Positions 18,314 through 47,758 of a stretch of 64,000 nt of DNA are shown one piece after another. The notes beneath the pieces are model-generated. The model worked only from the letters and a program-made list of their open reading frames with translations. It was not told the origin of the DNA and searched no databases. Every line of letters begins with the position of its first letter. Position 1 is the stretch's first letter. Both the position numbers and the translations under genes were made by a program. The DNA lies in the NCBI GenBank assembly GCA_964405685.1, contig CAYOOP010000001.1, positions 124,551 through 188,550 on the forward strand, given 5' to 3'. Origin of the DNA: an uncultured Rickettsiales bacterium. Lineage in GTDB: Bacteria > Pseudomonadota > Alphaproteobacteria > Rickettsiales > SXRF01.

Positions 18314-18378
18314 TAAGTTAGCACTTCAAAATGTTGGCTGTGGAAGAGCCTGTTTAGTGAATTCGCTCTCAGTATGCC
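18314..18378 (-). repeat. att-like repeat copy A (core plus conserved arm)
   Basis: taagttagcacttcaaaatgttggctg followed by tggaagagcctgtttagtgaattcgctctcagtatgcc; core identical to the sequence at the tRNA-Gln 3' end. Confidence 0.9.
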
Positions 18379-18744
18379 ACGATAAATTAGCGGAAAATAG
18401 GGATTTCCAGGGGTGCACATTCCGTGCATGAATTAGGGTAGGAAAATCTGGTGATAACGGGGCCCCAGTGTTCGATTCACCTCAACAGCACCATTCCCTC
18501 CTATTAATGTATTGATATATAATGGATTCACATTTGCCAGGATATCACCTTTGATTGTGGATGTAATGCTTGGCCCTTAAACCCACCGGCAACCACAAAT
18601 TGCGCTGGCAGATATCACGAAAATCTGTTAATTAGTTTCCCCAATTGCTGAGCATACAGCAAACGAAACATACGGGGAGTAGCATGATGAAATCACTGCG
18701 TATCTACGATACCAGAAACACTTTACACAATGCAAGAGTCGGCA

Positions 18745-18836
18745 AGATCAACAACGCAACCTCCATCTGGAATCAGGCGGGGTGTAATCTGTATAACGAT
18801 ACGGTGGGCAGTTTCGATGCCTTTGCTACCTCCGCG
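18745..18836 (+). repeat. 92-bp copy of an internal RTX gene segment (matches 20728-20819)
   Basis: Manual alignment gives 87/92 identical; both read INNATSIWNQAG.NLYNDTVGSFDAFATSA-like. Confidence 0.92.
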
Positions 18837-18889
18837 AATGATAATGATCAAATACAACAGATGACACTATGCAATCGGAGAGGTCTAGT

Positions 18890-19291
18890 ATGAGGCAGAA
18901 AATGACAATTATTTTCTTCGCGATATTAATGCTGTTACTGGGAACCTATGCTGTTGCAGCGTTGGTAGAACAGGTAAATTTAAGGAGCGAAGGAAAAGCA
19001 GCAGAAATAAGGAAAGAAGCAGGTGAGTTTCGATTTGAAGATTACAAGTCTGCTGAGGAAGCCCAAACTGCGCTTTTAAATTTGCATCCGATTGGAAGTG
19101 AAACCCAAAAACTAATAGAAAGATTTAAGCAGTACGGAAACATCACCAGGGAAGACCAAATCACGATAACCTATAATCCTAAAGTATCTGCGCACCTAAA
19201 CCTTGTATCCACCCAGTGGGTACTCATTATAAATAACAGTAATAACAATATTCGGTCTCTAGACGTCAAAAAATATCTAACGGGGCTTTGA
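18890..19291 (+). CDS. Exported/membrane-anchored hypothetical protein, candidate immunity protein
   Basis: RBS ggagagg, N-terminal hydrophobic helix, AT-rich; upstream of the RTX gene. Confidence 0.65.
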   Translation: MRQKMTIIFFAILMLLLGTYAVAALVEQVNLRSEGKAAEIRKEAGEFRFEDYKSAEEAQTALLNLHPIGSETQKLIERFKQYGNITREDQITITYNPKVSAHLNLVSTQWVLIINNSNNNIRSLDVKKYLTGL

Positions 19292-19308
19292 GGCCTTAAG
19301 GGGAGATT

Positions 19309-19719
19309 ATGCTGCGTAAGATTCTAAAACCTCTGCTGATTCTACCAATTCTAGTGGGCATTAGCCTTGGATATTTCTTTGCCAATGCCGCCACGCAAGA
19401 TAATCCAATGACGTATTGTGAAATCGTTGCCACCATATCTTTTAAGCCATCAGAAAAATTTAAAACATATATCAAAAATGGCACTGCACTTGAGCTTTAT
19501 GATCCAGCAAAGCATACAAATATCAAAGAGTTTTATATCCAAAATAACAAGTACGATATTGAGGAAGCCAATTGGTCTTCTAATGGTGATCCTTGCAAAC
19601 TTAATTTAGGAGCTGTTTTAAAAATCTTTGGGTTGATGTTCATATTAAGTTTTGGATTCACTGCCTACTTCTTGAAAGCAATAGTAATTGTTTTTCAAAT
19701 GGTTAAGGCCATATTTTAG
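19309..19719 (+). CDS. Two-TM hypothetical protein, candidate cognate immunity protein
   Basis: RBS aaggggag; N- and C-terminal hydrophobic helices around a polar loop; ends 8 nt before the RTX start; AT-rich like the RTX 5' end. Confidence 0.65.
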   Translation: MLRKILKPLLILPILVGISLGYFFANAATQDNPMTYCEIVATISFKPSEKFKTYIKNGTALELYDPAKHTNIKEFYIQNNKYDIEEANWSSNGDPCKLNLGAVLKIFGLMFILSFGFTAYFLKAIVIVFQMVKAIF

Positions 19720-19727
19720 GGGGATTT

Positions 19728-22700
19728 ATGACCGAAACATTAACAGATCAACGCATTGATAGCATTATAAACAATACGCCTGCAACGTTTGATGTCTCTG
19801 CAAACCCAAATGTTGATAGTCATTATGGAGAATGGAAAGCGCTTCATAGTGTAGGGGCTATACAGGTACAAAATTACACAGACATTATTACTCAAGAAGC
19901 TGCTGCGCAGGGTGTTAGTGGAGACCTTGTAAAGGCAATCATGTATGTAGAATTTGCTCAGGGAGCACTTTACGGCATTCCTGCGCAAGCTGCAGGAGTG
20001 GCTGATTCGCTTTACCCTATGAACATAAAAGGAAGTATATGGCAAGATCTTATACCCGGAGGGGATTTTTCTGACCCAGTAATAAATATCCGTGCAGGTG
20101 TTACATTAATTAAGCGTATTACAGATAGATTAGATAATCCAACAGTTGAAGAAATAGCTACTCTGTATAACAGCACCGGCAGAGAATTAGTTTCTGATTA
20201 TGGTGCTCGCGTTAAAATGGTGAAAGATAATCAATTGTGGCTTGATGCTCAAAACTATCCTAGTGGATACCATGCAGAAACCGCTAGTGAATATTTTGGA
20301 ATCACATCTACTATAGATAATGTTTGGGATTCTATTAAAGTTTTTGATAATCAACTTGCTAGCACAGGACAAACCTTTTTACAAACCATCGCTTTAAACA
20401 TTAGAGACAGTGGTGGATTAGGTGCGGCACTTAAAAATCTTTTTGGTGCTAATGTTAGTGCGAATCCAGAAGTAAACGCCCCCACCAGCTCCACCAACTT
20501 CTTCCAAATCTCGAACTCCGTCGGTCCCAATGCGGGGGAGCAACTCGATCTCAGCCTTACGACGGATTATCTCAACGGTCTCGCCGTCTCCGGCGGCAAT
20601 TGGCAGATTAATCTGCCGGGGAGTATTTTAAACACCAATGGGCTGTTTAATGTTGCGCCCTCCTCCTTCCTTACCGATGGCTGGCGGCCCGGTGCGGGGG
20701 AGATGGCTAACTATAATTTAAGCGGGCAGATCAACAACGCAACCTCCATCTGGAATCAGGCGGGGTATGATTTGTATAACGATACGGTGGGCAGTTTCGA
20801 TGCCTTTGCCACCTCGGCGCTGGGGCGGATTAATAACTATGTGATGGATGCCACCAATCTGCTCAACATTGATCCGCTGGTGCTGGATCTGAATGGCAAT
20901 GGCGTGGAGCTCAAGAGTTACCAGGATGCGAATGTGCTCTTTAATATGGATGCGGATGACTACAAAGAGCAGACGGGGTGGGTCGGTGCGAGTGATGGGT
21001 TTTTGGTGCTGGATAAAAATGGCGACGGCGTCATTAACGATGTCAGCGAGATGTTCTCGGAATATTTTACCTCGGGCGCGAAGAACGGGCTGGCGGCGCT
21101 GGCGACGATGGATAGCAACCACGACGGTGTGTTTAGCGCGGGCGACGCGGCCTATGGCCAGGTGCGCGTGTGGCAGGATGTGAATGGCAATGGGCAGACG
21201 GATGCGGGGGAACTGACGACGCTTGCATCACGCGGCATTACCAGCATTTCGCTTAACGGGACGCCGGGGAATGGCGCGCTGATTGCGGGCAACGAAGTGC
21301 AGGTGACGACGACGATGGTGATGAACGGCACCACGCGCGCGGTGGCGGCAATCAACCTGCTTGCCAACCCTAACGGGCATGAGTGGGATTTGGCGGCGCA
21401 GGGCATAATGCTGCATTCCGAGGCAGGCACTGCGAGCTTTAGCGTCAGCGATGTGAATGGGATGACAGTGAATGTAGCGGCGCTTGGGGTGAGCGGCGCC
21501 TATGGTAACGCCGGGAATGATACGCTGGTTGGCGATGGCACTGCCAACTGGCTGGGCGGCGGCGGCGGGAGCGATACGTTCTCGGGCGGTGCAGGGAATG
21601 ACGTGCTCATCATCGATGCGCAGGATGTGCAGGCCAATATCGATGGCGGCAATGGGTTTGATATTGTGCAGGTGGTCGGCGAGGACGGCGTCAATTTCAA
21701 CTTAAGCCAAGCGCATGTAGAGCTCGCGTATGGCGGTGTGGGCAATGATATTCTAGTTGGTGGTGGCACGACGAGCGTGTTTATCGCGGGCGGGGCTGGC
21801 GACGATATCATCATCGGCAGCGGCGCGAACGATGCACTCTCGGGTAATGATGGCAACGATATGGCCGACGGCGGATATGGCGATGATGTGATTCGTGGTG
21901 GTCGCGGCGACGACTTGCTGATTGGCGGGTTCGGCAACGATATTATGGATGGTGGCCTTGAAGACGATGTGCTGCAAGGCGGCGACGGCAACGATGTGTT
22001 CCTAAGCAGCGGCGGCTCCGACACGGTCGATGGCGGCGCGGGGGCCGACATTGTGCAATTTACAGGAAGCTTCTCGGAATATACGCGCACCACGCTGACG
22101 GATGGCCGCATTGTCATGACTGATCGCGTCGCATCGCGTGATGGTACGGTGACGATGAAAAACGTTGAGTTCTTCAATTTCAAAGACATCAATAATATTG
22201 GTGTGTCCTGGGATGCGCCGATGCCGGCGGACGACACGGTGACGATTAACCCTACCGGTACGCAAACCATTCTTGCATCGACCCTGCTTGCCAATGATGT
22301 CGATTATCAAAACCACACACTTCGCATCACCGGCCTTACCAATACTGTAGGAGGAACTGCAACACTAAATGGTGCTGGCAATGTCGTGTTCACGCCGACG
22401 GCTGGATTTAGCGGTGTCATGTCTTTCCAATATAAAATTGCGGATAGCCAGAATAATCCGGGGTTGACCGCTACTCAGCCGGGCACTGGGCTTTCGGCGG
22501 AAATGAAAGGCACGGTAACATTACAGACAGCGAGCCTTCCCACCGACCCGTTGTTTGGCGCCCAGTGGTATTTGGCCGAGGCCAATATTCTTCCGGTGTG
22601 GAAAAACTATACGGGCAAAGGTGTCACTATCGGTGTGTTTGAGACGGATATTTTCGATTATCAACATCCTGATTTAGCCCCCAACATCGCCACCAACCAT

Positions 22701-25700
22701 CCCAATAGCATCTACCGACCTGAAGATATTGGTTCCCATGCAACGCTGGTTGCCGGCGTGATCGGCGCGGCGCGCAATGGCCAAGGTGGTATTGGTGTTG
22801 CGTATGATGCGAAACTTGCCGCACAGAAATTTGACCTTACAACAAATAGCTATGGCCTACAGGATTTTGTGCATTACGATATTGTCAACAATAGCTGGAA
22901 TGCCACCCCGGCATTTTCGACCAATTTTGCGACCACGCCTCTTGCTCAAGACGTATTGAAAAACGCGGCTGTAAATGGGCGCGATGGGCTTGGTACGATT
23001 ATGGTATTTGCAGCAGGTAATGACCGTGCAGCGGGCGGTGACGCGAATGGTAGCGACCATAACAGCTCACGTTTTAGCATTGAAGTCGGTGCTATTAACC
23101 GGCCTGGGGATGTTGGCGCGCTTGTCACTGCCTCTACACCTTTTAGTAATCCCGGCGCTTCGATTTTAGTATCTGCACCCGGCTCTAACATCACCTCCAC
23201 CTCTCAGCTATTGCAAAATGCCGATGGTGCTAGTTTCGGCGGCGACTATGAAACCGTGCAGGGCACCTCGTTTGCTACACCGATTATTTCCGGTGTCGCT
23301 GCACTAATGCTAGAAGCCAACCCCAATCTCGGCTATCGCGATGTGCAAAAAATACTCGCGTATTCAGCCGTCTCGGTCAACGATCCCAACACCAGTTGGC
23401 AAACCAACGGCGCTGTGGACTGGAACGGCGGCGGCTTGCATGTGAGTCAGGATTACGGTTTCGGCAAAGTAGATGCGCTAGCGGCGGTGCGCCTGGCGGA
23501 AACCTGGAACACCACGCAAACAGCTGCCAATGAAGTAGCAAGTGTCAAGCAAAGCGGAACCGTGCATGCAGCAATTCCCGATGGCGGCAGTATTATGCAA
23601 ATGCTCAATGTGAGCAATTCACTGCAAGTAGAACACGTAGAAGTGCAGCTGACGCTCAATCACACGCAATTGGGTGATCTTATCATTACGCTGATTGCAC
23701 CGGATGGAACGCAAAGCGTATTATTAAATCGAATCGATAAAGCGCTCGGCAGCACCGATGCGGCAGATCGCGGCTATGGCATCATCAACGTGCCGATTTT
23801 GCTGAATAGCACGCATGATTTTGGCCAGAACAGCGTTGGCACGTGGCAATTAAAAATTACCGATGCCGCCGGCGGCCAAGCGGGCACGCTGGAAAGTTGG
23901 GAACTGCGTTTGTACGGACAAGCAACCACTCCCAATAATACTTATATTTACACCAAGGAGTTTGCAACTTCGACAGGATCTTCACGTCAAACGCTAAATG
24001 ATAGCGCAGGCATAGACACTATCAATGCAGCGGCAATTACTACCGCAACCACAATCAATCTCACTGCAGGAAGCAACAGCACCATCGCTGGCCGCACTCT
24101 AACCATTGGCAGCGCCACCACGATCGAAAATATATATACAGGCGATGGCAATGACACCATCACCGGCAACGGCACTGATAATATACTAAACGGCGGTCGC
24201 GGTAATGATATTATCAACGGTGGTGGCGGTAACGATACTATCACCGGTGGTATGGGCAACGATACCCTTACCGGTAGCACAGGTGCCGATATTTTTGTTA
24301 TCAACAAGGAAAGCGGTGCAAGCGATATCGTCACCGATTTCAGTGCCGCTTCGGGTGATATCATTAGCGTACAGGGGTTCGAGAGCACTTACGGTTTTGC
24401 AAACTTGGTGCGCACGCAATCAGGCAGCAATGCCCTCGTTACATTGCAAAACGGTCAAACCATTGCGCTGAATAATGTTACCGCCAGCGCGCTTACCGCT
24501 GCAAATTTTAATTTTGGAAATGTGCTGCTTGGAACCACAGGGACCGACACATTAAACGGTACGTCAGGTGACGATATTATCAAAGGCATTAGCGGCGCGG
24601 ACATTTTAAACGGTGCTGCCGGGAATGACACGATTGTTGCGGGTGCCAACGCCAGCACGATCAATGGCGGCGATGGTAATGACATTCTCAAAGGCGGTGC
24701 CGGCAATGATGTGATCCTCGGCAATAACCATAATGATACGATCTATGGCAATGCTGGCAATGACACCATTACAGGCGATGACGGTATCGATAAAATCTAT
24801 GGTGGCGATGGTAATGACACGATCGACGGCGGCATTGGCAACGATATTATTTACGGTGGTAATGGTGTTATCAGCGACTTTAATAGCACCTTAAATAATG
24901 AATCCACTGAAAGCGATACCATTCATGGCGGCGTGGGTGATGATATCATCCATGGCGCCGGCGGGAACGACTTGCTCTACGGTGACGACGGCAACGATAC
25001 GATCTATGCCGGTAATGGCGGCGATACGGCAGACGGCGGAAATGGGAACGACACCTTATACGGCGGTATCGGCGGCGACACGATCAATGGCGGCGCAGGG
25101 AACGATAGCATCCATGGCGAATACGCCGTTACAGATACGGTCGGCAGTGATGATGTCATCCACGGAGACGACGGTAATGACATTATTGCCGGTGGCGGCG
25201 GCAACGATGTCATCTATGGCGATGCGGGGGATGATGATATTACCGGGGGGCTAGGAAACGATACGATCTATGGCGGTACAGGTAATGAAAATTATATGTG
25301 GGGTGATACTGGTATTGCAGGAAACCCAACCGGCTCCGATCGTTTTGTTATTACGCCTCGCTACCAAGCCAATACCGACGTTATTTGGGACTTCGATAAC
25401 AGTGATCAAAATGAGCGTGTTGATCTTTCAGCGTTTAATCTCACGACCGGTGATTTCAATTCGCGCATCTGGGTAGTGTCGGGAGTCAATTATACGGTGC
25501 CTGATTCGAACGGCGTTGTTCAAACTTATACCGCGACTGATATTTTTATTCGTGACACCGCAGGTAGCATCAATTTCTCAACGGTCTTCAGCGATCCGCA
25601 TTTTCAGGTTGTCACATTAATCAACGTTTCAACGCTGTATGCGTACCAGTTGCTACTTACCACCCATGATGGTCCTTACTGGGGCACCACTGCTGTGAAT

Positions 25701-28700
25701 AGCATTACCGGCTCTGACGACAATGATATCATCTACGGAAGTGACGGTGATGATACGCTGCTCGGCCGCTATGGTCAGGATCGTCTGTACGGTGGTGCAG
25801 GTAATGATACGCTAGTAGGCAGCTATGGTGTGGATGTGCTTGACGGCGGTGCTGGCAATAACTGGGCGGACTTTTCCGATTCGTTTGCAGGTGTTGTAGT
25901 CAATCTGACTAGTGCTGTACAAAATGCCGGCACGTCCATTGCCAATGCTGCATATGGCGATACGCTCATCAACCTCCAAAACGTTTATGGTTCCCAAGCA
26001 AACGATAGCATCACCGGCGATGCAAACGATAATATATTAGATGGCTTAACCGGCGCTGATACATTAAACGGCGGCGCAGGAAAAGATACGGCGGAGTACA
26101 CCTATTCCGCTTCTGCCGTGACGGTGAATCTTACGACAAATGTAAATTCCGGTGGTGACGCGCAGGGCGATGTTCTTTCCAATATCGAAAACCTCATTGG
26201 CTCGAATTTCAACGATACGTTAACGGGTACATCAGCCAACAACACCATTGAAGGCGGCGCGGGCGCTGATACCATCAACGGTGGCGCAGGTATCGATACC
26301 GCATCTTACGCAGGTTCTACAGCTGGGATAACGGTCAATCTCACACTAACCACGATGCAGTCGGGAGGGGATGCACAAGGAGATATGCTCTCCGGGATCG
26401 AACATATCATTGGTTCTAGCTTTAACGACACGCTAACGGCGCTGGCTGCTGGAAGCACCTTAGATGGTGGTGTCGGAAGCGACACACTTAATGGCGGCGC
26501 AGGTAATGATACATTGATCGGCGGTGCTGGTGCCGACACTATGAACGGCAGTGGCAGCGTGGATACTATCTCTTATGCAAGCTCTAGCGCGGGGATTAAC
26601 GTGAACTTAGCGCTTACGACCGCCCAATCCGGTGGCGACGCCCAAGGTGATATTCTTTCCAGTATCGAAAACCTCATTGGCTCAGCGTTTGATGATGCCT
26701 TGGCTGGCAGTTCTGCTGCCAATACCATCAACGGCGGCGCGAGAAATGACACTATTTCTTACTCTAATTCAACGGCAGCAGTAAATGTCAACCTCGACCT
26801 TACAACCGCACAGTCAGGTGGATTTGCGGCAGGTGATATTCTCTCCAACATCGAAAATGTCATTGGCTCTAACTTTAATGATACTCTGACCGGAACCGCA
26901 GCTGCTAACAATATCAACGGTGGCACTGGAATTGATATTATCTCTTACGCCAATTCCGCTGCAGCGGTAAATGTAAATCTGACACTAACCACCGCACAAG
27001 CAAGTGGTTATGCTCAAGGCGATATTCTCTCTAATATTGAAAACCTCACCGGCTCTAATTTTAATGACATACTAACGGGTAGTGCTGTTGCTAACACCAT
27101 CAATGGCGGTGCAGGCAACGATACATTGGATGGTGGAAATGGGAATGATACGCTGACAGGGGGTACAGGTGCGGATGTATTCATCCTCCAGAAAGAAGCC
27201 AATGCGCGCGATGTGATTACCGATTTTAGCATCAGCACGTCCGGCGAAAAAATCAGTCTCTTAGGTTTCACAGCAGCGATTAACTTCACAAATTTAGCCA
27301 TCTCTCAACAGGGTGCTGATGCAGTTATCACCCTGGAGAATGGCCAAACGCTTACGCTAAGCAACGTCACCGCGAGTACGCTTACAGCGGCAAGCTTTGG
27401 GGAAAGCGGTGCCCTTATCGGCACGGCGGGAGATGATATTCTCACCGGCACTAGCGGTAATGATACAATGCAAGGGCTAGATGGAAATGATATTATAACC
27501 GGCCGTGCAGGCGCAGATACGCTGGATGGCGGTGCGGGCGTAGACACGCTGTCGTACTCCGATTCTGCCAGCGCGGTGAATGTGAACCTGGCAACGGGCG
27601 CAGCTTCCGGCGGGGATGCGCAAGGCGATGTTATCACCAATTTTGAAAACCTGACCGGTTCCGGCTACAACGATACACTAGTCGGCAGCATGGTTGCCAA
27701 CATGATCAATGGGGGTGCGGGTGTGGACCTTGTATCGTATCTCGATTCAACGGCCGGCGTAAGTGTCAACCTTGGGCTTGCCACGGTGCAGAGTGGCGGT
27801 TCTGCTGCGGGTGATATGCTTTCTAACATCGAAAATCTCACCGGTTCTAATTACAGCGACACGCTGACAGGAAATGCGGTCGATAACATCATCAATGGCG
27901 GTGCAGGCAACGATAACATCAACGGCGCGGCGGGGAACGATACCATCAACGGCGGCGATGGGGATGACATATTAAACGGCGGTACGGGTGCAGATAACCT
28001 TACTGGCGGCAATGGTATCGACACTGCGTCTTATTCGGCGTCAGCCGCAGCGGTGACAATCAACCTCACGACTAACGTAAACACTGGGGGCGATGCGCAA
28101 GGGGATTTACTTTATACGATCGAGAATCTGACTGGTTCTGCGTATAACGACATCATTACTGGCAGCGCTGCTAATAACGTGCTGCTGGGCGGCGCGGGTG
28201 CGGATACGCTGGATGGTGCTGGCGGCATGGATACCGTATCTTACACGGGTTCCAATGCGGCGGTTGTGATTGATCTTGGGCTTGCGACCGCGCAATCCGG
28301 CGGCCACGCGGCGGGTGATATTTTGAAGAACATCGAGAATATTCTCGGCTCGGCGTATAACGATACGCTGAATGGCACGTCTGCCGCCAACACGCTCGAC
28401 GGCGCGAGTGGTGTGGATGTGGTTTCATATGCAGGGTCGAACGCTGCGATAAATGTGAACCTGGCGCTAACCGGTGCACAAACCGGGGGGCATGCGCAAG
28501 GAGACATTCTTTCAAATGTCGAGGGTCTTATTGGCTCGAATTACAACGACACGCTGGGCGGAAGTTCTGCTGTCAACGTGCTGGATGGCGGTGTTGGCGT
28601 AGATACGGTTTCGTATGCTAATTCCAGTGCTGCTGTGACCGTGAACCTCACGCTGACCACCGCACAAACGGGCGGATTCGCGCAAGGGGATATTCTCAAG

Positions 28701-37239: not shown

Positions 37240-37971
37240 ATGATAAAATCACAGCTACACGCGTCCAATCCTACGATTTCGCATCCACTGTTTGAGGCGA
37301 GCCCTGAATTGTGGAGAGAGGCTGCCAGCACGCTACGGAAGAAAACCTACGAGAATGATGATCGTATCATCTCGCATGGCGATGCGGCGGGGAGCCTGTG
37401 GTTGGTGCTTTTTGGCTGGGTAAAGCTCACGCGCCAAACACCGGATGGCAAAGAAAGTATTATCGGCTTGTGTACGGAAGGGGATGTCTTTGGCGAAGCG
37501 GCGTTGTTTCCCCACGCCAACTATCCCTACACTGCGGAAGTGGTGGGGTGCAGCGCGGAATTGGCAGCGATTCCGGCAACAACGATTCGTGCGCTAGTGG
37601 CCAAAGAACCTTCGCTTTCTGCGCGCGTGATGGCACTACTCAATGAACGCACATCGCAGGCGCAACTGAAATTAGAACAGTTGACGACGATGTCTGCTGC
37701 GCAGCGTTTGGGCTGTTTTTTGCTCAGGCTCTGCCATACGCAGGTGGGCGGTGCGAAGACTCTGCAAATACCCGTTGAGAAGCATATTTTAGCGGCGTAT
37801 CTCGGCATGAAGCCCGAGACTCTATCCCGCAGTCAGCAACAGTTGAAGCCACTGGGTATTTTGGTTTCCGGTCATGCTATCACCATCAATCAGGTGGAGA
37901 AGCTACGAGAGTTTGTGTGCAATAGTTGCTCGGAATCTGGCAATTGCGAGGCGGAAGAGGTTCTGAATTAA
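37240..37971 (+). CDS. Crp/Fnr-family transcriptional regulator (FixK/Dnr-like) with C-terminal Cys cluster
   Basis: cNMP-binding barrel (GWVKLTRQTPDGKE...GDVFGEAA), HTH AYLGMKPETLSR; tail CNSCSESGNC. Confidence 0.9.
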   Translation: MIKSQLHASNPTISHPLFEASPELWREAASTLRKKTYENDDRIISHGDAAGSLWLVLFGWVKLTRQTPDGKESIIGLCTEGDVFGEAALFPHANYPYTAEVVGCSAELAAIPATTIRALVAKEPSLSARVMALLNERTSQAQLKLEQLTTMSAAQRLGCFLLRLCHTQVGGAKTLQIPVEKHILAAYLGMKPETLSRSQQQLKPLGILVSGHAITINQVEKLREFVCNSCSESGNCEAEEVLN

Positions 37972-38390
37972 ACTGCAAACACACCTTCCAGCGCATGGGT
38001 GAGGTTCGGCAGTGGCGGCGGTTGCTTAAACCATGCCGCCAAAAGTGGGTATTCGATTTCCGCCACAATATGCCGCGTGGCCGATTGCGGTAGAGACGCA
38101 TGTACCCACGCAATATCGTTGCTGCCACCTACCAATACCAGTTGATCAAACGCATGGGTACGATCTGCTTCAACGATAGATTCTTGAAATTGTTCCAGCG
38201 ATGCAAACACCGCGTGGTTATGTTGCACTACGGGCAAGAGCGTTCCTCGCACATCTTTTTCAAACAGCGAAATCATCCCCTCGCACGCAGCAACTACCCA
38301 TACGCGCGGCGCACCACCACACCCACTGCCCTTGCATTTGCCAGAGCAGGCTTTGTTTGTAGTGATGGGTGTGACGGTGCAGCCAGACAT
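37968..38390 (-). CDS. Host-attachment-protein (AtsE/baeRF)-like protein, short
   Basis: RVWVVAA..FEK..FDQLVLVG...IVAEI pattern; Cys-rich N-terminus. Confidence 0.55.
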   Translation of the reverse strand: MSGCTVTPITTNKACSGKCKGSGCGGAPRVWVVAACEGMISLFEKDVRGTLLPVVQHNHAVFASLEQFQESIVEADRTHAFDQLVLVGGSNDIAWVHASLPQSATRHIVAEIEYPLLAAWFKQPPPLPNLTHALEGVFAV

Positions 38391-38392
38391 GG

Positions 38393-39001
38393 CTAAAACT
38401 TATAGCCAACGCCCACGCCAATCAACCACGGATCAATATCTACATCCGCGCGGACACCACTTGGACTAAACTTGGCTGTCGTGCTGATAAATACCTTTTT
38501 CACATCAATGTTGGCATACCAATTATCTTGAATGGGAATATCAACACCCGCTTGCAGCGCGCCACCGAAGCTATCGTCGTATGTAACGGCATTCAGTGCA
38601 CCCGCATCTTCATTGAAGAAATGCGTATAGTTCACGCCAGCGCCGACATAGGGCTTAATTCCATCAAATTGCGTAAAATGATATTGTAACGTGAGTGTAG
38701 GCGGTAATAACCACGAACTTCCCGCGTCAATTCCACTGCTGGTTTTGACATCATGCGGCGTAACAGCAGCGATCAGTTCTGCCGCTATATTCGGTGTAAA
38801 GAAATAGGTGAAATCTAGCTCTGGAACCACGCTGTTATCGACACTCACGCTATCGCCATTGGAAACGCGACCATCTTCATCAGGCACCACGCCTAGCGCG
38901 CGTGCGCGGATCATAAAATCGCCAGCTTTGAAATCGGATGCTGCAAACGCAGGGCTGACGAGCGTAAGAGCAATCGCGACCGTCAGAAAAAGTTTTTTCA
39001 T
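38393..39001 (-). CDS. ompW: OmpW-family outer membrane protein
   Basis: PELDFTYFFTPNIAAELI, LPPTLTLQYHF, PYVGAGVNYT, DPWLIGVGVGYKF; start at ATG 39001 after GGAG. Confidence 0.93.
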   Translation of the reverse strand: MKKLFLTVAIALTLVSPAFAASDFKAGDFMIRARALGVVPDEDGRVSNGDSVSVDNSVVPELDFTYFFTPNIAAELIAAVTPHDVKTSSGIDAGSSWLLPPTLTLQYHFTQFDGIKPYVGAGVNYTHFFNEDAGALNAVTYDDSFGGALQAGVDIPIQDNWYANIDVKKVFISTTAKFSPSGVRADVDIDPWLIGVGVGYKF

Positions 39002-39056
39002 AGGGCTCTCCATCGTTATGATGGCACTGAAGATAGACGGATAAACCGAGCAATCC

Positions 39057-39070
39057 TTGATTTGGGTCAA
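39057..39070. promoter_or_regulatory. FNR/FixK box between divergent ompW and DUF465 genes
   Basis: TTGAT-TTGG-GTCAA versus consensus TTGAT-N4-ATCAA (1 mismatch). Confidence 0.8.
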
Positions 39071-39125
39071 GCGCCAAAGCCTTCTCTGTGTTTATGTTGA
39101 GGAGGAACAACAGAAGGAGTCTCTC

Positions 39126-39368
39126 ATGCCACTTGAAAACCATAGCTTGATCAACGAATTTCCTGAAATGCGCGAGCGTATTCACCGGTTAAAAGCGGCC
39201 GATGGCCACTTTGCTCGGCTCTTTAATGAATACGATGCGGTGGAACATAGTGTACATCGCATTGAATCCGGGGCCGAAGCGGCCAGCGATGAACGGTTGG
39301 AGCAACTCAAGAAAGAGCGGCTTGCACTGAAAGATGAGCTGTACAATATGCTGCGGAAAGCGGCTTAA
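39126..39368 (+). CDS. DUF465/YdcH-family small coiled-coil protein
   Basis: EFPE...HFARLFNEY...LKKERLALKDELY; RBS aaggag. Confidence 0.85.
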   Translation: MPLENHSLINEFPEMRERIHRLKAADGHFARLFNEYDAVEHSVHRIESGAEAASDERLEQLKKERLALKDELYNMLRKAA

Positions 39369-39511
39369 ACCTCTTCATCCTCCCGCAAGATCCGGTGCGG
39401 TGCGCCGTCTAGGTCTTCGAACTGGTTGTTTTTCATTGCCCACATGAAGGCGACAAGCCCAAGAACACCGAGCGTAAGCGCGATGGGTATGAGGTAGAGT
39501 AGGATGTTCAT
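39365..39511 (-). CDS. ccoS: cbb3 oxidase maturation protein CcoS/FixS
   Basis: Manual translation MNILLYLIPIALTLGVLGLVAFMWAMKNNQFEDLDGAPHRILREDEEV (below ORF-track size cutoff). Confidence 0.92.
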   Translation of the reverse strand: MNILLYLIPIALTLGVLGLVAFMWAMKNNQFEDLDGAPHRILREDEEV

Positions 39512-41655
39512 GCGCGCTCCTTCAACATGCGAAGCCTAAACGCATTACCAATGACCAGCAGTGATGAACTGGACATGGCGATTGCTGCAATGAGTGGCGT
39601 AACATAGCCAGCGACCGCCAGCGGAATCGCAATCACGTTATAACCAATCGCCAACCAGAAGTTTTGCCGCACCAACGTTTGCGAAAATTGCGCGGTTTTC
39701 CAAGCAGTAATCACAGGTACCAGTTTATCGCCCTGAAATACAATGTCAGCTGCGTTTTGCGTAATATCCATCGCGCTGGCGGGTGACATAGAAATGCTCG
39801 CGGAAGAAAGCGACGGTGCATCATTCAACCCATCGCCCACCATCAGCACATGTGCGCCGTCCGCTTTGAGCACAGAGATCTTTTCGGTTTTTTGCAGTGG
39901 TGATAATGCGCCTTCAAATGCCTTGATGCCCAACTTCTGAGCAATATCTTTAGCCACCTCTTGCCGATCACCAGAGAGCAATAACGTCTTGATGCCACTT
40001 GATTGCAGCGCGGCGATCACCTCTTTCGCATCTTCGCGCAATTGATCGGCAAAGGTAAAGCGAATAGGTTGTTTTCCATCCTCTGCTAACCACAACTCCA
40101 GTGTGTTTTCACCATCATCAGGCAACTGCGTTGCCCAGCTTCTTTTACCCAGCTTGACCCCTTCCGATTCAAGCCCACAGCCTTGAATTTCATGCACATG
40201 CACCATCGGCAACACATTTGGATACGCACGCACCAATGCTTGCGATAGCGGATGTTTGCTGTTTGCTGCAATTGCGGCCGCTTTCTCTAAATCCTGAATC
40301 CTGAATCCTGAATCCTGCAATACTGGTTTTCCCAGCGTCAACGTGCCGGTTTTATCAAACACGGCGTGGGTGATGGTAGCAAGTCGCTCTAGCGCGCTGC
40401 CGCTTTTAAGTAGAATGCCAGCGCGCATCAGCTTGCCGCTGGCCAGCACCTGTACTACCGGCACCGCTAACCCTAAAGCACACGGGCAGGTGATGATGAG
40501 CACGGTGGCCGCATAAAGCAATGCAAGCTGCCACTCGATATCTCCAAACAACATCCAACCCGCAAATGTTGCGGCGGCAAGCGCATGCACCGCAGGTGTA
40601 TACCAACCAGAAATGCGGTCAGCCAATGTCACATATTTCGCTTGCGATTGCTCGGCGGTTTCCATGAGTCTTACAATTTCCGAAAGCAAGGAACGTTCGC
40701 CTGCTTTAGTGATCCGAATGGTGAGTGGCGCGGCAATATTCATCGTACCCGCAAATACTTTCGTGCCGACACGCACTTGCTGTGGCAGGGTTTCTCCCGT
40801 AATCAAGCTGGTGTCGAGTTCCGATTCGCCCGAGATAATCTCCCCATCGGCACCGATTTTCTCACCCGCCGCTACCAGTAAAATCATACCTTCTTTGAGA
40901 TCAGAAAGAGGCAGCATTTCTTGCACGCCGTCTTTGAGAATGGTGGCAAAACCCGTCATCATTTGCAACAAATCATGCGCGGCGCTGCGTGCGCGGCCTT
41001 TCGCGCGCGCTTCCAGATAGCGCCCGATAAGCAGAAAAAACAGCAACATCACACCCGAATCAAAATAGGAATGTCTGCCGAACGTCGCGGTTTCGTAGAA
41101 GCTCATGAGCGTGGCTAGAATCACTGCCACGGAAATCGGCACATCCATATTCGTTTTGCGCTGCGCGAGTGCTTTCCACGCCGATTTATAAAATGGCAAG
41201 CCTGAGTAAGCGATGGCGGGAATGGCAATCACCGCTTGTATCCAATGGAAAAATGTCCGTGTAGCTTCACCCATCTGCATGGGGTCACTGCTCCACAGCG
41301 GCACCGAAAACAGCATAAGGTTACCGCTGGCGAACCCGGCCACGGCAAGGCAGCGCAGCAAGAACTTTTCTTCTTTTCTCTCTGCAGTTTCCGAAGTTGC
41401 AGGGTCAAAAGGCACGGCGCGATAGCCCATGCCGTTGATCAGTTCAACCCACTTATCACCAAGCTCCACCGCCCCTTGCCACACCACACACAATCGCTTA
41501 GTAGAAAGATTAAGCCGCGCAGTGTGCACCGCCTCTTGCTTTTTAAGCGCGCCCTCGATAATCGCCACGCAACTTGGGCAATGCATCCCATCCACCAACA
41601 GGTTCACGCTGTGGAGGCCATCGGCTTCAGAGGTGATGAAAGGGCGTGTGGTCAT
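39508..41655 (-). CDS. ccoI: Copper-translocating P1B-ATPase CcoI/FixI
   Basis: GMHCPSC HMA domain, TGE, CPCALGL, DKTGTLT, MVGDGLNDAP; start set downstream of a REP-like element (track start 41730). Confidence 0.93.
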   Translation of the reverse strand: MTTRPFITSEADGLHSVNLLVDGMHCPSCVAIIEGALKKQEAVHTARLNLSTKRLCVVWQGAVELGDKWVELINGMGYRAVPFDPATSETAERKEEKFLLRCLAVAGFASGNLMLFSVPLWSSDPMQMGEATRTFFHWIQAVIAIPAIAYSGLPFYKSAWKALAQRKTNMDVPISVAVILATLMSFYETATFGRHSYFDSGVMLLFFLLIGRYLEARAKGRARSAAHDLLQMMTGFATILKDGVQEMLPLSDLKEGMILLVAAGEKIGADGEIISGESELDTSLITGETLPQQVRVGTKVFAGTMNIAAPLTIRITKAGERSLLSEIVRLMETAEQSQAKYVTLADRISGWYTPAVHALAAATFAGWMLFGDIEWQLALLYAATVLIITCPCALGLAVPVVQVLASGKLMRAGILLKSGSALERLATITHAVFDKTGTLTLGKPVLQDSGFRIQDLEKAAAIAANSKHPLSQALVRAYPNVLPMVHVHEIQGCGLESEGVKLGKRSWATQLPDDGENTLELWLAEDGKQPIRFTFADQLREDAKEVIAALQSSGIKTLLLSGDRQEVAKDIAQKLGIKAFEGALSPLQKTEKISVLKADGAHVLMVGDGLNDAPSLSSASISMSPASAMDITQNAADIVFQGDKLVPVITAWKTAQFSQTLVRQNFWLAIGYNVIAIPLAVAGYVTPLIAAIAMSSSSLLVIGNAFRLRMLKERA

Positions 41656-41661
41656 ACATTC

Positions 41662-41760
41662 CGTCATCCTGCGAGGCGCGAAGCGACTGCGCAGGATCTC
41701 GTTATTATTGTAAAAAGATCCTGTGCTCATGTCTTCGCTTTCAGCTTCGACGATGCCACA
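41662..41760. repeat. Palindromic REP-like elements in ccoH-ccoI spacer
   Basis: gtcatcctgcgaggcgcgaagcgactgcgcaggatctc and gatcctgtg...cacaggat inverted repeats. Confidence 0.55.
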
Positions 41761-41769
41761 GGATTTGAG

Positions 41770-42207
41770 CTACTCTACCACAATCCTCTTATTAACCTGA
41801 AAATTTTTATCGCCAACCTGTGCATCCACCCGTACATCCCACACGCCCTTAGCGGGGAAAGGGATAGGTGTGTTTTTGTCTTTTAATTCCACCGTGAAAT
41901 CCATCCCTTTTTCGGCAGGGCGGGTGATGGTGGCGGTGACACTATCTGGCGTGAGTAGCTTTCCTTGCTTATCTTTCAGCGTGAAGTGGAGCGTACCATT
42001 GGCATAGCTTATCTCTCCCTTCCATCCCAATTTCTCCTGCGCTGCTTCTGCTTTGACCACTTCGTTATACGCAAGTCCCCTTTCATAGGCATGATCCGTC
42101 ACCACGCCGCTATGGGTGCGGATGGCCAGCGTCATCATGACTGCATTCACAGCGGCAATTAATCCAAAAAATGCAGTGAAATACCAGAATACGCGTTTGC
42201 CTGTCAT
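41770..42207 (-). CDS. ccoH: FixH/CcoH family protein
   Basis: AFFGLIAAVNAVMMTLA..T.SGVVTD.AYERGL.YN. Confidence 0.9.
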   Translation of the reverse strand: MTGKRVFWYFTAFFGLIAAVNAVMMTLAIRTHSGVVTDHAYERGLAYNEVVKAEAAQEKLGWKGEISYANGTLHFTLKDKQGKLLTPDSVTATITRPAEKGMDFTVELKDKNTPIPFPAKGVWDVRVDAQVGDKNFQVNKRIVVE

Positions 42208-43583
42208 CTGCCTTCGCTCACAAAAATAGATTCTGTACTGGTGGTCACTGTAGCGTTTTTATCACGAACATGGAACACGATCTCTTGCCGATGTTCCGCT
42301 TGCTTGCTCGCCGTCAAGAATACCCGGAAATGCGCCACTGAACCAGCAAAAACGGGCAAGTTTTCTGCCGTCATTTCTTCCGCTGCCTGCACGCGCAGCA
42401 CAACGTTCTCAAGGCCTTCAACCGCCAGTGTGTAATGAGCATCGTCATGGGATTTGTTGATAATATTGATATTATAGCCGTTACGAATAGAGCCGTCGGA
42501 GAGCTTGACGAATAAGGGGTTGCGATCATGCACCACATTTAGTTCAAGCGGCGCGCGAGTGAGTAGGCTGTAGAGCATCAAACACCCAACCAGCGCAATG
42601 ATACCACCATACCAATAGGTGCGTGGGCGTAGCGGATTAAATTTCTTTTTGCTCTCGGTGTCGTAGCGGATCAGCCCCTTCGGCAGGCCGATCTTTTCCA
42701 TCACATTGTCGCACGCATCGACACATAAGCCGCACGCGATGCATTCCATCTGTAACCCGTTACGAATATCAATCCCCATGGGGCAGACGACGACGCAAGA
42801 GTCGCAATCGATACAGTGGCCTTTGCCCTCCCAGCTATCGCCCGTTTTGTGTTTTCCGCGTGGTTCACCGCGAATTTCATCATAGGCAATAATCAGCGTG
42901 TCTTTATCAAACATCGCTGATTGGAACCGCGCATAGGGGCACATATAGGTGCATACCTGCTCACGCGCAAAACCCGCCATGAGATAGGTGGAGAAAGTGA
43001 GCCCCAGAATCCACCCGCCTACGCTCCACGGCACATCGAAATGCACAATCTGATCCATTAATGTCGGCGCATCGTTAAAATAAAACACCCATGCACCGCC
43101 GGTGCATAGACCAATGAGTAGCCAGATAAGATGTGTCAGGCCTTTTTTGCGTATCTTCTCGAAGGTCCATTTCGATTCATCGAGTTTTTTGCGGGCGTTG
43201 CGATCACCTTGAACGATGCGCTCTACCCACACGAATAAATCCGTCCACACCGTTTGCGGGCAGGCATAACCGCACCAGACTCGGCCAAACAGCGAGGTGA
43301 CGAAGAACAGACCAACTGCCGCAAGAATCAGAATTCCGGTGATATAATAGACTTCCTGCGGCCAGATTTCGATGCCGAAGAAATAGGCGCGGGTATGATT
43401 GAGGTCGATGAGGATGGCTTGGTCTGGCGCATTTTCACCACGATCCCACCGCAGCCATGGCGCACCATAATAAATGGCGAGCAACGTGACCATCGCCATC
43501 CATTTCAGCTTACGAAATTTGCCCCATACGCGCCGTGGATAGATTTTTTCTTGTTTTTTAAAAAGTTGTATGGGGGCTGCCAT
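42204..43583 (-). CDS. ccoG: cbb3 oxidase accessory 4Fe-4S protein CcoG/FixG
   Basis: GRVWCGYACPQTVWT, CTYMCPYARFQ, CIDCDSCVVVCPMGIDIR, CIACGLCVDAC. Confidence 0.95.
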   Translation of the reverse strand: MAAPIQLFKKQEKIYPRRVWGKFRKLKWMAMVTLLAIYYGAPWLRWDRGENAPDQAILIDLNHTRAYFFGIEIWPQEVYYITGILILAAVGLFFVTSLFGRVWCGYACPQTVWTDLFVWVERIVQGDRNARKKLDESKWTFEKIRKKGLTHLIWLLIGLCTGGAWVFYFNDAPTLMDQIVHFDVPWSVGGWILGLTFSTYLMAGFAREQVCTYMCPYARFQSAMFDKDTLIIAYDEIRGEPRGKHKTGDSWEGKGHCIDCDSCVVVCPMGIDIRNGLQMECIACGLCVDACDNVMEKIGLPKGLIRYDTESKKKFNPLRPRTYWYGGIIALVGCLMLYSLLTRAPLELNVVHDRNPLFVKLSDGSIRNGYNINIINKSHDDAHYTLAVEGLENVVLRVQAAEEMTAENLPVFAGSVAHFRVFLTASKQAEHRQEIVFHVRDKNATVTTSTESIFVSEGR

Positions 43584-43586
43584 TGG

Positions 43587-44480
43587 CTATTCCTTAGGCT
43601 TGGCGGCTTCGCCTCCACCGAGTGAATGCACATAGATCGCGAGTGCTTTAATGGTTTCATCCGGCAGACGCGATTCCCATGTCGGCATCACCCCATGTTT
43701 TGGATTCGCGATTTGTGCCATAATATCTTGCTTGGTGTTGCCATATAACCAAATCGCATCCACAAGGTTCGGTGCGCCAAACTCGCGGCCACCTTTGCCT
43801 GTATCGCCATGACAAGAGGCACAGTTTTGTTTGAATAGTGCTGCACCCGCCGTATGGTCGCCTTTGCCGCTTTCGAGGCTCAAAGCATACTCTGTCACGC
43901 TTGCAATTTCTTCCTTTTTCAGCATGTCACCGAACGCCGGCATTTGCGAACTTCGCGTATCCTTATGCCCTGCACGAACGCCGACTTTCAATGTCTGATA
44001 AATAGATTGCAAATCCCCGCCCCAGACCCAATCGTCGTCATTGAGGTTTGGGTATCCCTTGCGTCCTTCTGCGCCCGTGCCATGGCATGCCGAGCAGTTT
44101 TCCTTAAACAGCGTTTTCCCACCTGCTACCGCGAAGGCATAAAGCTCAGGATCTTTTTGAATTTCTTCGAGCGAATGAGCTTTTATTTTTGCTGCAAACT
44201 CTCCGCGCCGCTCAAGCATCTCCTCCTGTTCTTCGCCGAGTTTTTTATATTGCGTCCAGCCCGCCGTGCCTTTTGTACCACCGCGTTCGCCCTCACCAGA
44301 AAGCGTTGGCCACGCCGGATACACCACCCAATAACCCACCGCCCAAATGCAGGTAATGGCAAATACAACCAGCCACCAGCGCGGCGCAGGAAGGTTTAGT
44401 TCCTTGATACCATCCCATTCATGACCCGTCGTTTCAACACCAGAGTGCTGGTCGATTTCTTTTTTATCTTTATCAGTCAT
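43587..44480 (-). CDS. ccoP: cbb3 oxidase subunit III CcoP
   Basis: TTGHEWDGIKELNLPAPRWW; two CxxCH haem motifs (CSACH, CASCH). Confidence 0.96.
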   Translation of the reverse strand: MTDKDKKEIDQHSGVETTGHEWDGIKELNLPAPRWWLVVFAITCIWAVGYWVVYPAWPTLSGEGERGGTKGTAGWTQYKKLGEEQEEMLERRGEFAAKIKAHSLEEIQKDPELYAFAVAGGKTLFKENCSACHGTGAEGRKGYPNLNDDDWVWGGDLQSIYQTLKVGVRAGHKDTRSSQMPAFGDMLKKEEIASVTEYALSLESGKGDHTAGAALFKQNCASCHGDTGKGGREFGAPNLVDAIWLYGNTKQDIMAQIANPKHGVMPTWESRLPDETIKALAIYVHSLGGGEAAKPKE

Positions 44481-44625
44481 GATTCCCCTCTTTCAGCGGA
44501 ATGCGCGCATGATCTTGCATGGTTTGTTTGGCGCTTGGGCGATAGGTGCGATACGCCACCCATACGAAAAATGTGAAAAAGAAAATCAGAGCCGTAGTGG
44601 GCGCAAGTTCATAGATGAGGTTCAT
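44473..44625 (-). CDS. ccoQ: cbb3 oxidase subunit IV CcoQ
   Basis: Manual translation [50 protein letters not shown]; lies between ccoO and ccoP. Confidence 0.88.
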
Positions 44626-45353
44626 TTTGTGCCCTCCTGCTGGAGCTGGTAATCCTTGATATCCGCCAGCGTGCCGAGCGTCTGTAAATAAGCCACCAAC
44701 GCATCCATTTCTGACACAAAATGCTTCTGCCCATCGAAATCACGGATATTCACTTTGTTGCCATAGCGCGTGTTTAGACCAGATGGATCGCTATCTGCAT
44801 GCGCCTGCGCCATCGCGTCGTTATAGGCGCTTTCAATCATCACATCGGTGTAGGGAACACCCACCGTGCGATACGTTTTCATGAGCTTTTCAATTTTACC
44901 AATGTCGGCCGCGTGATTCATCATGAAGCTATAAGACGGCATGATGGATTCCGGCACGACATCGCGCGGTCGAATCATATGCGCCGTGTGCCACTCGTCG
45001 GAATATTTACCACCGACGCGTGCCAAGTCCGGTCCGATGCGCTTGCTCCCCCATAGGAATGGGTGATCATACATACTTTCCGCCGCCAGTGAATAATGGC
45101 CGTAACGCTCCACCTCATCACGCAACGGGCGAATCTGCTGGCTATGGCACGACGAGCAGTTTTCACGAATATAAATTTGTTGACCCGCCAATTCCAGCGG
45201 CGTGAGTGGGCGCATGCCACTCACTTTCTCAATCGTCGTTTCAACGCGAAATAACGGCACAATCTCCACCAACCCGCCAATTGAAATCGCCACCAGCGAA
45301 AATACCAGCAAGAGAATCGAGTTTTTCTCCAGCTTTTTGTGTTTCTCAAGCAT
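44622..45353 (-). CDS. ccoO: cbb3 oxidase subunit II CcoO
   Basis: [40 protein letters not shown]. Confidence 0.96.
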
Positions 45354-46764
45354 ACGCGGCCTCCTTCACGACGAGCTTCGGAGGATTCACCGTGCGCCAG
45401 CAATTATAAATCATGATGAGCATGCCAGCGAGGTAGAGCAGCCCGCCCAGTGCGCGGATAATGTAATACGGGTGCATGGCCTCCACAGTTTCTACGAAGG
45501 AATATTCGAGAAAGCCCATGCTGTCATAGGCGCGCCACATCAAGCCCTGCATAATGCCCGACACCCACATGGCGGTGATATAAAAAACGATGCCGATGGT
45601 GGCCACCCACAGATGAATATTGATGAGGCGCATCGAATACATTTCCTGCTTCTTCCACAGAACAGGCACGAGGTGATAAATCGCACCGAAACTGATGAAT
45701 GCGACCCAACCGAGCGCGCCAGAATGCACATGGCCAATGCCCCAATCGGTGTAATGCGAAAGTGAGTTCACCGCTTTAATCGACATCAGCGGCCCTTCAA
45801 ATGTGCTCATGCCGTAAAATGCGAGTGCGACGATCATGAAGCGCAACACTGGGTCATCGCGCAGTTTATTCCATGCGCCAGAAAGCGTCATCACTCCGTT
45901 GATCATACCGCCCCAGCTTGGCATCCACAGCATGATAGAAAATGTCATGCCGAGCGTTTGCGCCCAATCGGGCAGCGCGGTGTAATGCAAATGGTGCGGC
46001 CCCGCCCAGATATAGATAAAAATCAGCGACCAGAAATGCAGAATCGAAAGGCGGTATGAATAGACGGGGCGATTCGCACGCTTCGGAATGAAATAATACA
46101 TGATGCCGAGGAAGCCTGCGGTCAAGAAAAACCCAACCGCATTATGGCCGTACCACCACTGGATAAGTGCCGCCTGCACACCCGCCCATACGGGCACCGA
46201 TTTCGCACCTAAGCCTGACACAGGAATGCTCATACCATTCACCAAATGCAGCACGGCGACGGTGGCGATAAAGGCAAGAAAGAACCAATTTGCCACATAA
46301 ATATGCGGCTCTTCGCGCTTGGCGAGTGTCATCAGAAAAATGAGCAGATACGCCACCCATACAACGGTCAGCCACAAATCCGCATACCACTCCGGCTCGG
46401 CATATTCCTTGCCTTGTGTGACGCCGAGCACATAGCCAAGTGCGGCCATCACGATAAACGCCTGATAGCCCCAGAAGGTGAAATTGGCGAGTTTGTCGTT
46501 CCAGAGTCGCGTGCGGCAGGTACGCTGTACGACGAAATAGGATGTCGCAAACAACACACTACCACCAAAGGCAAAAATAACGCCAGATGTGTGCACAGGG
46601 CGCAAACGACCAAAGGTGAGATAGGGATCAAAATTCAAATCCGGAAATGCCATTTGCAGAGCAATGATAAGCCCTACCAACATCCCCACCACACCCCAGA
46701 ACAGTGCGGCGATGGTGAACTTCTTGACGATCTCGTCATTGTAGATGGGAGTAGTTCTTTGCAT
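45346..46764 (-). CDS. ccoN: cbb3 oxidase subunit I CcoN
   Basis: [41 protein letters not shown]. Confidence 0.97.
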
Positions 46765-46765
46765 A

Positions 46766-47416
46766 TTATCTTACACTCCTTGCCGCCAACGCCAGAAGCG
46801 TCAGCCCGTTAAACGCCATGCCAAAGCGGCCAATACCGCGCATCATTTCTTGCCATTTTACGGCGAGCATTGCAGCGCTACCACTCGCCACCAGCAACGC
46901 CGGAATCGTGCCCAGCACAAACAACCACATGGCAAACATCCCCGCGAGCGGGCTCGCAAGTGTCGCCGCCATCATGAGTGCGGCATAAATCAATCCGCAG
47001 GGCATAAAGCTCATCAGCACGCCGCGCAAAAAACCATTCTTGGGTGCGTAAGAAAACAAGGCATGTTGATTCGGCAAAATCGCACTGAGCAGAAATAATC
47101 CGCCTGCTGTCACCATCATTGCTGTCGAAATCGTTGGCCAGTAGCTTGCCGCCGCTAATTGTTTTGAAAAAAGCGCCGCAAAAAATCCAAGCGCGCCATA
47201 GGTGATTAATCGCCCCAGATGATACTGCCACTGCGAAGCCGCATTCATGCGCTTACCGCAATTACCGCCACACGCCGATTGGCACGCCACCACAGGCCCA
47301 CACATGACAAGGCAATGGGTAAGGCTGCCCATCAGCCCGCCTAGAAAAAACACAGCAAACAGGCTCCCGCTTTGCGAGAAAATCGCCGAACAATGTGCAA
47401 GTAGTGCTTCCATCAA
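46766..47416 (-). CDS. DsbD_2/TauE-SafE-like membrane protein associated with cco clusters
   Basis: [43 protein letters not shown]. Confidence 0.85.
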
Positions 47417-47458
47417 TAATCCTTTGGAAGCACTCTATAATTAAGCCACTTCAGTGCC

Positions 47459-47472
47459 TTGATTTGGGTCAA
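47459..47472. promoter_or_regulatory. FNR/FixK box upstream of the cco operon
   Basis: TTGATTTGGGTCAA, identical to the box at 39057 (ccttgatttgggtcaagc shared); 42 bp upstream of the first gene. Confidence 0.82.
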
Positions 47473-47651
47473 GCAGCATCAAATGCTAACTTTTGTTCTA
47501 AGCCTGTCCGGAATACAGAGACAATCTCGTTGATATCCTACCATCCAGGTGAGGTTTGGAGTGAAAAACCGCTATTTTGGCAGAAATGGGCTTTTGGTAT
47601 GTGGCGGTGAATACGCAAATGGTGCCGGAAACAGCCACAATCACGGAGTCT

Positions 47652-47689
47652 CAGGCCAGACTTAAGTTAGCACTTCAAAATGTTGGCTG
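47652..47689 (-). repeat. att-like repeat copy D overlapping tRNA-Gln 3' end
   Basis: caggccagacttaagttagcacttcaaaatgttggctg; the last 6 nt are the tRNA 3' terminal CAGCCA. Confidence 0.92.
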
Positions 47690-47758
47690 GGGCGCCAGGA
47701 TTCGAACCTGGGAATGCCGGTACCAAAAACCGGTGCCTTACCGCTTGGCGACGCCCCA
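47684..47758 (-). tRNA. tRNA-Gln (TTG)
   Basis: TGGGGCG/CGCCCCA acceptor stem, anticodon arm CCGGT-TTTTGGT-ACCGG, T-loop GTTCGAATC, encoded CCA; 75 nt. Confidence 0.97.

Follow-up and report, generated by a model that had tools for sequence, protein, structure and literature searches.

Attachment-site-bounded segments stacked at tRNA-Gln of an uncultured Rickettsiales bacterium and their probable origin from elements of a large serine recombinase clade

How do three coherent, operon-sized blocks of DNA come to stand in a row behind one tRNA gene, each delimited by the same short repeat and none with a recombinase gene of its own? The question is raised by a 64,000-nucleotide (nt) stretch (here called the window) of contig CAYOOP010000001.1 from an uncultured Rickettsiales bacterium (assembly GCA_964405685.1), in which an array at tRNA-Gln carries a cbb3-type oxidase cluster, an operon of secreted proteins, and a giant RTX protein gene. 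A first-pass annotation made from the letters of the window had proposed an integron-like platform of recombinase-less cassettes moved by an enzyme supplied in trans. Comparison with related genomes led us to a different answer. The array probably grew as integrative elements inserted in tandem at the 3' end of tRNA-Gln under the action of a large serine recombinase (LSR), with each element later losing its recombinase module. The process is most likely one already known, resembling the accretion of cis-mobilizable elements (CIMEs) and the composite pseudo-SCC (staphylococcal cassette chromosome) islands, with a newly identified recombinase family behind it, and is neither integron-like nor a new gene-capture machinery.

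Repeat anatomy of the array

The array is built on a 23-nt core, TTAGCACTTCAAAATGTTGRCTG, that occurs four times, always on the + strand, at 18318-18340 (copy A), 31128-31150 (copy B), 37060-37082 (copy C), and 47667-47689 (copy D), where shuffled sequences gave an expectation of 0 copies. The four copies in one orientation that the first-pass annotation had seen, including one at the tRNA-Gln 3' end, are thereby borne out. The copies are identical at 22 to 23 of 23 positions, copy B carrying a single G>A change at core position 20. A search of the whole 1.89-Mb, 16-contig genome with up to three mismatches allowed returned no further copy, and a repeat scattered genome-wide was accordingly rejected: the four copies in this stretch are the total.

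Copy D is anchored on tRNA-Gln(ttg), located at 47684-47758 on the - strand and identified by both ARAGORN and Rfam as the only tRNA-Gln gene of the genome; it forms the B side of the attachment (att) site. The core takes in only the terminal CAGCCA (6 nt) of the tRNA, its other 17 nt being 3' trailer, which gives copy D the makeup of an attB-like site. Adjoining it is a trailer relic, T1 (47560-47666, + strand), which was recognized by its similarity to the tRNA-Gln trailers of relatives and from which the distal box and the recombinase are missing.

The three non-tRNA copies have in common an arm on their high-coordinate side. In copy C, an attP-like junction at 37060-37140, the core is followed by the arm at 37083-37140; core and arm of copy B occupy 31128-31206; and copy A, at 18318-18445, marks the distal end of the array with an arm at about 18341-18445, all three being on the + strand. 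The arms agree with one another at 49/56, 41/56, and 42/56 positions and with the tRNA body at 6 to 8 of 56. An arm shared by these copies had been annotated before at about 40 bp; the sharing holds, but the arm is longer, at 56 to 100 nt, arm A being homologous to a metagenome copy over approximately 100 nt. Copies A and B are 90% identical across 79 nt, and in copies C and D 16 of the 17 trailer-side nt are also identical. The difference between core identity (22 to 23 of 23) and arm identity (41 to 49 of 56) suggests that the crossover region is under constraint or is renewed. Two other identities of the arm were tried and rejected, namely a decayed copy of tRNA-Gln (alignment z of ~0, no ARAGORN match) and a structured RNA (no Rfam match, no fold signal beyond shuffles). 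The three repeat units likewise showed no attC-like fold, with folding z-scores of -0.45 to +0.08. Logan contigs of the same strain from two samples (SRR7369924 and SRR7369912), obtained by exact-protein look-ups, are identical to the window and end at the repeats.

The copies fall, as had been claimed, at the borders of coherent cbb3, secreted-protein, and RTX blocks, as seen from Pfam matches and open reading frames (ORFs). The units measure 5.9, 10.6, and 12.8 kb and hold 4 to 13 genes each, an FNR-type regulator among them. The further claim that no block contains a recombinase also held. No gene or relic of a tyrosine or serine recombinase was found between 16 and 49 kb: PF00589, PF00239, and PF07508 had no match in the window, the Pfam scan of ORFs revealed no integration or transfer genes within the segments, and tblastn with nine recombinases against 16 to 49 kb yielded nothing credible, with no relic at E < 0.01 outside coding genes. 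The largest non-coding gap in that interval is 643 nt. Across the whole genome, Resolvase and Recombinase domains had no match, and no serine recombinase is encoded that could act in trans. The genome does have six tyrosine recombinases, every one on other contigs, and its four phage-type tyrosine integrases lie elsewhere, away from any copy of core or arm.

A serine recombinase clade at the same junction in relatives

The trailer connects the array to a recombinase. T1 (~47560-47666) resembles the tRNA-Gln trailers of two related genomes, G029 and G034, and the second trailer copy of a third, G021, with z of 6 to 8, and it is 68% identical over 108 nt to the trailer of G379. The outer flanks of the other three copies, T2 to T4, showed no significant similarity to the trailers of relatives. 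On these alignments we take T1 to be a truncated trailer.

We scanned 401 genomes of the same alphaproteobacterial order for a 32-nt trailer box and found it in 10, belonging to families f1, f9, f11, f13, and f24; in 8 of the 10, the box lies 140 to 170 nt past tRNA-Gln(ttg). Coding sequence of LSR1, the LSR clade associated with tRNA-Gln, adjoins the box at graded stages of completeness. The gene is full length in G021 and G379, whereas G249, G223, G265, G211, G177, and G034 retain C-terminal relics of 171, 138, 122, 99, 69, and 39 codons, respectively. The LSR1 homologues of G021, G379, and G085 (100, 64, and 52% identity) all lie 0.4 to 2.7 kb downstream of tRNA-Gln and convergent with it, and in the same three genomes a protein of the Resolvase plus Recombinase (plus zinc-ribbon) type adjoins the homologous site. 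The first-pass annotation had named a tyrosine recombinase as the enzyme to seek; the trailer adjoins serine recombinase genes instead.

Since the non-coding trailer is 75 to 79% identical between families whose MetF proteins are only about 55 to 60% identical (53 to 61% when compared with that of this genome), the trailer moves horizontally. And since LSR-clade genes lie just past the trailer box beside tRNA-Gln, we regard the trailer as that arm of an LSR element which lies toward the recombinase gene, in a family whose integration site is the 3' end of tRNA-Gln. That T1 might be a vertically inherited, native intergenic trailer was considered and rejected, the trailer being patchy in occurrence, horizontally conserved, and tied to LSR genes.

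The arm, for its part, is the far end of the same LSR elements. Among 185,579 species genomes, a strict arm motif had exact matches solely in G021 and in a soil alphaproteobacterial metagenome-assembled genome (MAG), and in the metagenome contigs of public collections it matched one contig, L090; viral contigs contained no match to arm or trailer. In G021, a segment of 11.4 kb opens with trailer, HEPN, and LSR, carries assorted cargo, and ends in the arm. In the soil MAG, next to a phosphoketolase gene, the core links the arm to a short stretch of trailer. The metagenome contig has the order tRNA-Gln, core, trailer, TumE-type toxin with a helix-turn-helix (HTH) partner, arm, core, and second trailer; the toxin-antitoxin cassette so enclosed is 1.65 kb long and without a recombinase, and the two trailers are ~70% alike, with the 29 nt next to the core nearly perfect. 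A contiguous run of LSR relic, trailer, core, and diverged arm on contig C41 of G223 has the order that an internal junction between two tandem elements should have. The far ends of the G085 and G223 elements were not found in the flanking DNA examined.

Several further observations were made at these sites. In G021 (L065 567-1110), the last 37 nt of tRNA-Gln plus trailer form a 278-nt tandem duplicate, an att-to-att unit with zero cargo. In G379 (L096 1380-1500) and G223 (L135 1330-1400), the interval from the stop codon of the recombinase gene to the trailer box contains four to five copies of CCTGTT / AACAGG, which may represent a protein-binding array. More distant clades of the same serine recombinase family are located by tRNA-Ala(ggc), tRNA-Tyr, and tRNA-Ser (L099, L100, L102, L107, and L108), and the family in general seems to be directed to the 3' ends of tRNA genes, each clade having its own choice of gene. 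Because G013 (L070 787-2250) has a classical 407-amino-acid (aa) tyrosine integrase directly after tRNA-Gln, this gene is used by two unrelated recombinase types in this bacterial family.

Accretion and decay weighed against other origins

The anatomy described above shows that the site of the circular element consists of arm, core, and trailer, with the LSR gene just past the trailer, and from it a course of events can be proposed. As element and chromosome have the core and the near part of the trailer in common, integration would regenerate an attB-like site (tRNA plus core) at the tRNA and leave an attP-like site (arm plus core) distally. The next element would again enter at the tRNA and displace older ones outward, which would make the RTX block the oldest and the cbb3 block the newest. 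Deletion of the recombinase module would then leave cargo bounded by att sites, much like CIMEs or pseudo-SCC elements. The earlier proposal that related elements integrated one after another finds support here, in attachment-site junctions stacked behind tRNA-Gln. Copy D could serve a newly arriving member of the family as its integration site, and the LSR of such an element could probably excise sets of segments nested from the tRNA side (D x C, D x B, and D x A). Since no serine recombinase is left in the genome, the array should be silent unless an incoming element brings one.

The putative derivation by deletion draws on the LSR decay series at the same trailer in eight relatives, the genome itself being without a relic. 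Decayed integrase genes inside the blocks had been named in the first-pass annotation as the mark of ordinary degraded islands; the LSR series of the relatives provides this in spirit, but not in this genome. Several observations weigh against accretion and decay. The three segments hold no recombinase relic, and their gaps are too small to hide one, so that three unusually clean deletions are required. T2 to T4 retain at most 17 to 20 nt of trailer, and the outermost flank, T4, resembles neither native nor element trailer. Lastly, arm and full LSR occur in a single continuous element solely in G021, and its arm-side junction is without the trailer part of the core.

Part of this evidence would be explained by a dedicated platform in which minimal circles of att site plus cargo never carry a recombinase and are moved by an enzyme in trans. 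No recombinase relic occurs in the three segments or in the toxin-antitoxin cassette of the metagenome contig, the cores are preserved perfectly, and every segment is functionally coherent. We nevertheless consider such a platform improbable. Recombinase genes in successive states of decay still stand at this junction in relatives, the array's own genome has tyrosine integrases elsewhere, away from any core or arm, and no serine recombinase, and exact arm motifs are confined to two species genomes and one metagenome contig, with a diverged copy in G223. An integron-like arrangement in particular is left unsupported. As in integron arrays, the units are one-directional and promoter-distal and each ends in a related recombination site, but there is no IntI, no attI, and no folded attC, and the site is anchored on a tRNA gene. 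Moreover, integron cassettes are mostly single promoterless ORFs, whereas the units here are 6- to 13-kb operons with their own regulators. Tyrosine-integrase islands of the classical P4 type, with the integrase genes deleted, would agree with the 407-aa integrase directly past tRNA-Gln in G013 and with the 30-nt tRNA-Gln 3'-end copies found elsewhere in several relatives. P4-type islands have an integrase beside the tRNA and repeat the 3' part of the tRNA, duplicating its last 30 nt; here there is no integrase, and only 6 tRNA nt are repeated, the rest being trailer. The trailer, in addition, is tied to LSR genes rather than to tyrosine integrases, and the G013 integrase is merely 45 to 50% identical to any integrase of this genome, all of which makes this origin very unlikely. 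We give least credence to native chromosome blocks among which the repeats arose when the tRNA-Gln trailer was duplicated locally or recombined homologously, with no site-specific integration. A plain tandem duplicate of 278 nt, comprising tRNA 3' part and trailer, does exist in G021, and in 8 relatives the 10 genes of the cbb3 block form a conserved unit with no repeats at its flanks. However, the arm is not derived from the tRNA (z of ~0) and recurs joined to the core in unrelated organisms, and the secreted-protein block stands in other tRNA or gene contexts in G022 and G203.

A more active fate of the array is conceivable, although we think it doubtful: it might still work as a collection site of the SCC type, LSR1-clade elements adding at the tRNA end and excising nested recombinase-less sets without a directionality factor, and so moving operons like the cbb3 cluster between genera. 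Pseudo-SCC composite islands at rlmH (orfX) of staphylococci are tandem arrangements with short direct repeats, some of them recombinase-less, that involve large serine recombinases, and integrated SCC junctions still resemble substrate sites. The array is like these islands in its tandem, repeat-delimited segments at one site and its want of a recombinase. It differs in that SCC uses the rlmH 3' end and Ccr recombinases, while here the site is the tRNA-Gln 3' end and trailer, serine recombinases are absent from the genome, and the clade implicated is, by its context, an unrelated one. If such a working site were real, whole operons, for example a complete cbb3 oxidase cluster, would move between uncultured alphaproteobacterial genera.

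Accretion followed by decay, the explanation that we favor, has a precedent in streptococci, for whose elements CIME formation and tandem accretion have been described (PMC5704250). The CIMEs of the ICESt1/ICESt3 family of Streptococcus thermophilus are similarly att-flanked segments without integration or transfer genes, arranged one behind another at a target gene's 3' end, and the origin proposed for them runs likewise from integration through decay to the next integration at the regenerated site (PMC5704250). In contrast to the tyrosine integrase of that family, a large serine recombinase is implied here, in an uncultured alphaproteobacterial host and with no visible conjugation genes or relics. 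No new class of gene-capture machinery is thus revealed. What the locus offers is a concrete, testable att site together with the recombinase clade of a hitherto undescribed integrative-element family, found in uncultured Alphaproteobacteria with small genomes. Three kinds of cargo, namely a complete high-affinity oxidase cluster, an operon of secreted proteins, and a giant RTX protein, are here accessory DNA bounded by att sites at a single hotspot. The graded decay that leads from intact element to cargo alone is, in addition, a natural series useful for studying island fixation.

Cargo segments and links to tRNA-Thr(ggt)

Segment 1, at 37141-47559, is the cbb3 block, as defined by Pfam matches. 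Its genes run in the order FNR-type regulator (37240-37971, + strand), a 140-aa ORF, OmpW, DUF465 (39126-39368), CcoS (39365-39511), CcoI, CcoH, CcoG, CcoP, CcoO, CcoN (45346-46764), and DsbD_2 (46766-47416). The same 10 genes are found in the same order in 8 relatives, never adjoining tRNA-Gln and with no flanking repeats; repeats flanking the block were sought in six relatives, and none were found. Because CcoN is present in 6 of 15 family genomes and a second haem-copper oxidase, of the aa3 type, is encoded elsewhere in the same genome, the cbb3 cluster is regarded as accessory. The ranks of cbb3 identity among relatives give no signal of transfer either way, as all of these relatives are about equally distant (MetF, 53 to 61%).

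Segment 2, delimited by ORFs at 31207-37059 on the - strand, encodes seven co-oriented exported proteins (genes at 31253-36880). They comprise proteins of 677, 282, and 88 aa plus four paralogues of 178 to 206 aa, and none of the seven has a Pfam match. Homologues of the block were found in two other settings. In G022, the block comes straight after tRNA-Thr(ggt) (L084 8066-12907). In G203, which is from another family, it stands beside genes for a thioredoxin (Trx)-like and a MarR-like protein (L086 13128-14298) that are 80 to 89% identical to window positions 16659-17539, where the corresponding Trx-like (82 aa) and MarR-like (191 aa) genes lie just outside the array. Since the secreted-protein block of G203 adjoins these homologues, the arrangement suggests that the RTX segment was inserted between neighbors that travel together. 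Transfer may also account for the stretch from tRNA-Ile (16264-16340) to copy A. In G203, no arm/core unit above the null expectation was found in the gap that separates the secreted-protein block from the MarR-like gene. In G036 (L085 8228-12890), the pair of 677-aa and 282-aa secreted proteins is followed by a 417-aa RTX-repeat protein, and the pair may work with RTX proteins.

Segment 3, the RTX block identified by Pfam, covers 18494-31127 on the + strand and contains ORFs of 140 and 136 aa, a 3,435-aa RTX protein (19728-30035), and an HlyD paralogue (~30155-31023). The giant protein is cadherin-like, with a subtilase S8 domain accompanied by a P-domain and ~30 RTX repeat matches in Pfam. 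The segment is paralogous to an RTX and type I secretion system (T1SS) locus downstream of the real tRNA-Thr(ggt) gene of the genome (C1:89601-106000). Because no ABC transporter or TolC gene occurs in the RTX segment, its giant protein probably depends on the other RTX/T1SS locus for export.

A tRNA-Thr(ggt) 3'-end fragment (18449-18493, + strand), 84 to 85% identical to tRNA-Thr(ggt) of this genome and of G022, directly adjoins arm A on its inner side. Downstream of the genome's intact tRNA-Thr(ggt), RTX genes and an HlyD gene follow within 16 kb, the HlyD product being 84% identical to the copy in the window. At the DNA level, the HlyD-type gene at 30155-31022 has its paralogue at C1:104945-105812, with 77% identity. 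From these neighborhoods, there seems to be a second hotspot at tRNA-Thr(ggt), one whose cargo is exchanged with that of the tRNA-Gln array. Shorter similarities connect the RTX genes as well. A 92-nt stretch at 18745-18836, upstream of the small ORFs, repeats the RTX gene piece at 20728-20819 with 94.6% identity, and a 188-nt piece of the RTX gene (21929-22116) is 98.9% identical to the other RTX locus at C1:100947-101134. We read these near-identical pieces as signs of recent recombination among RTX genes.

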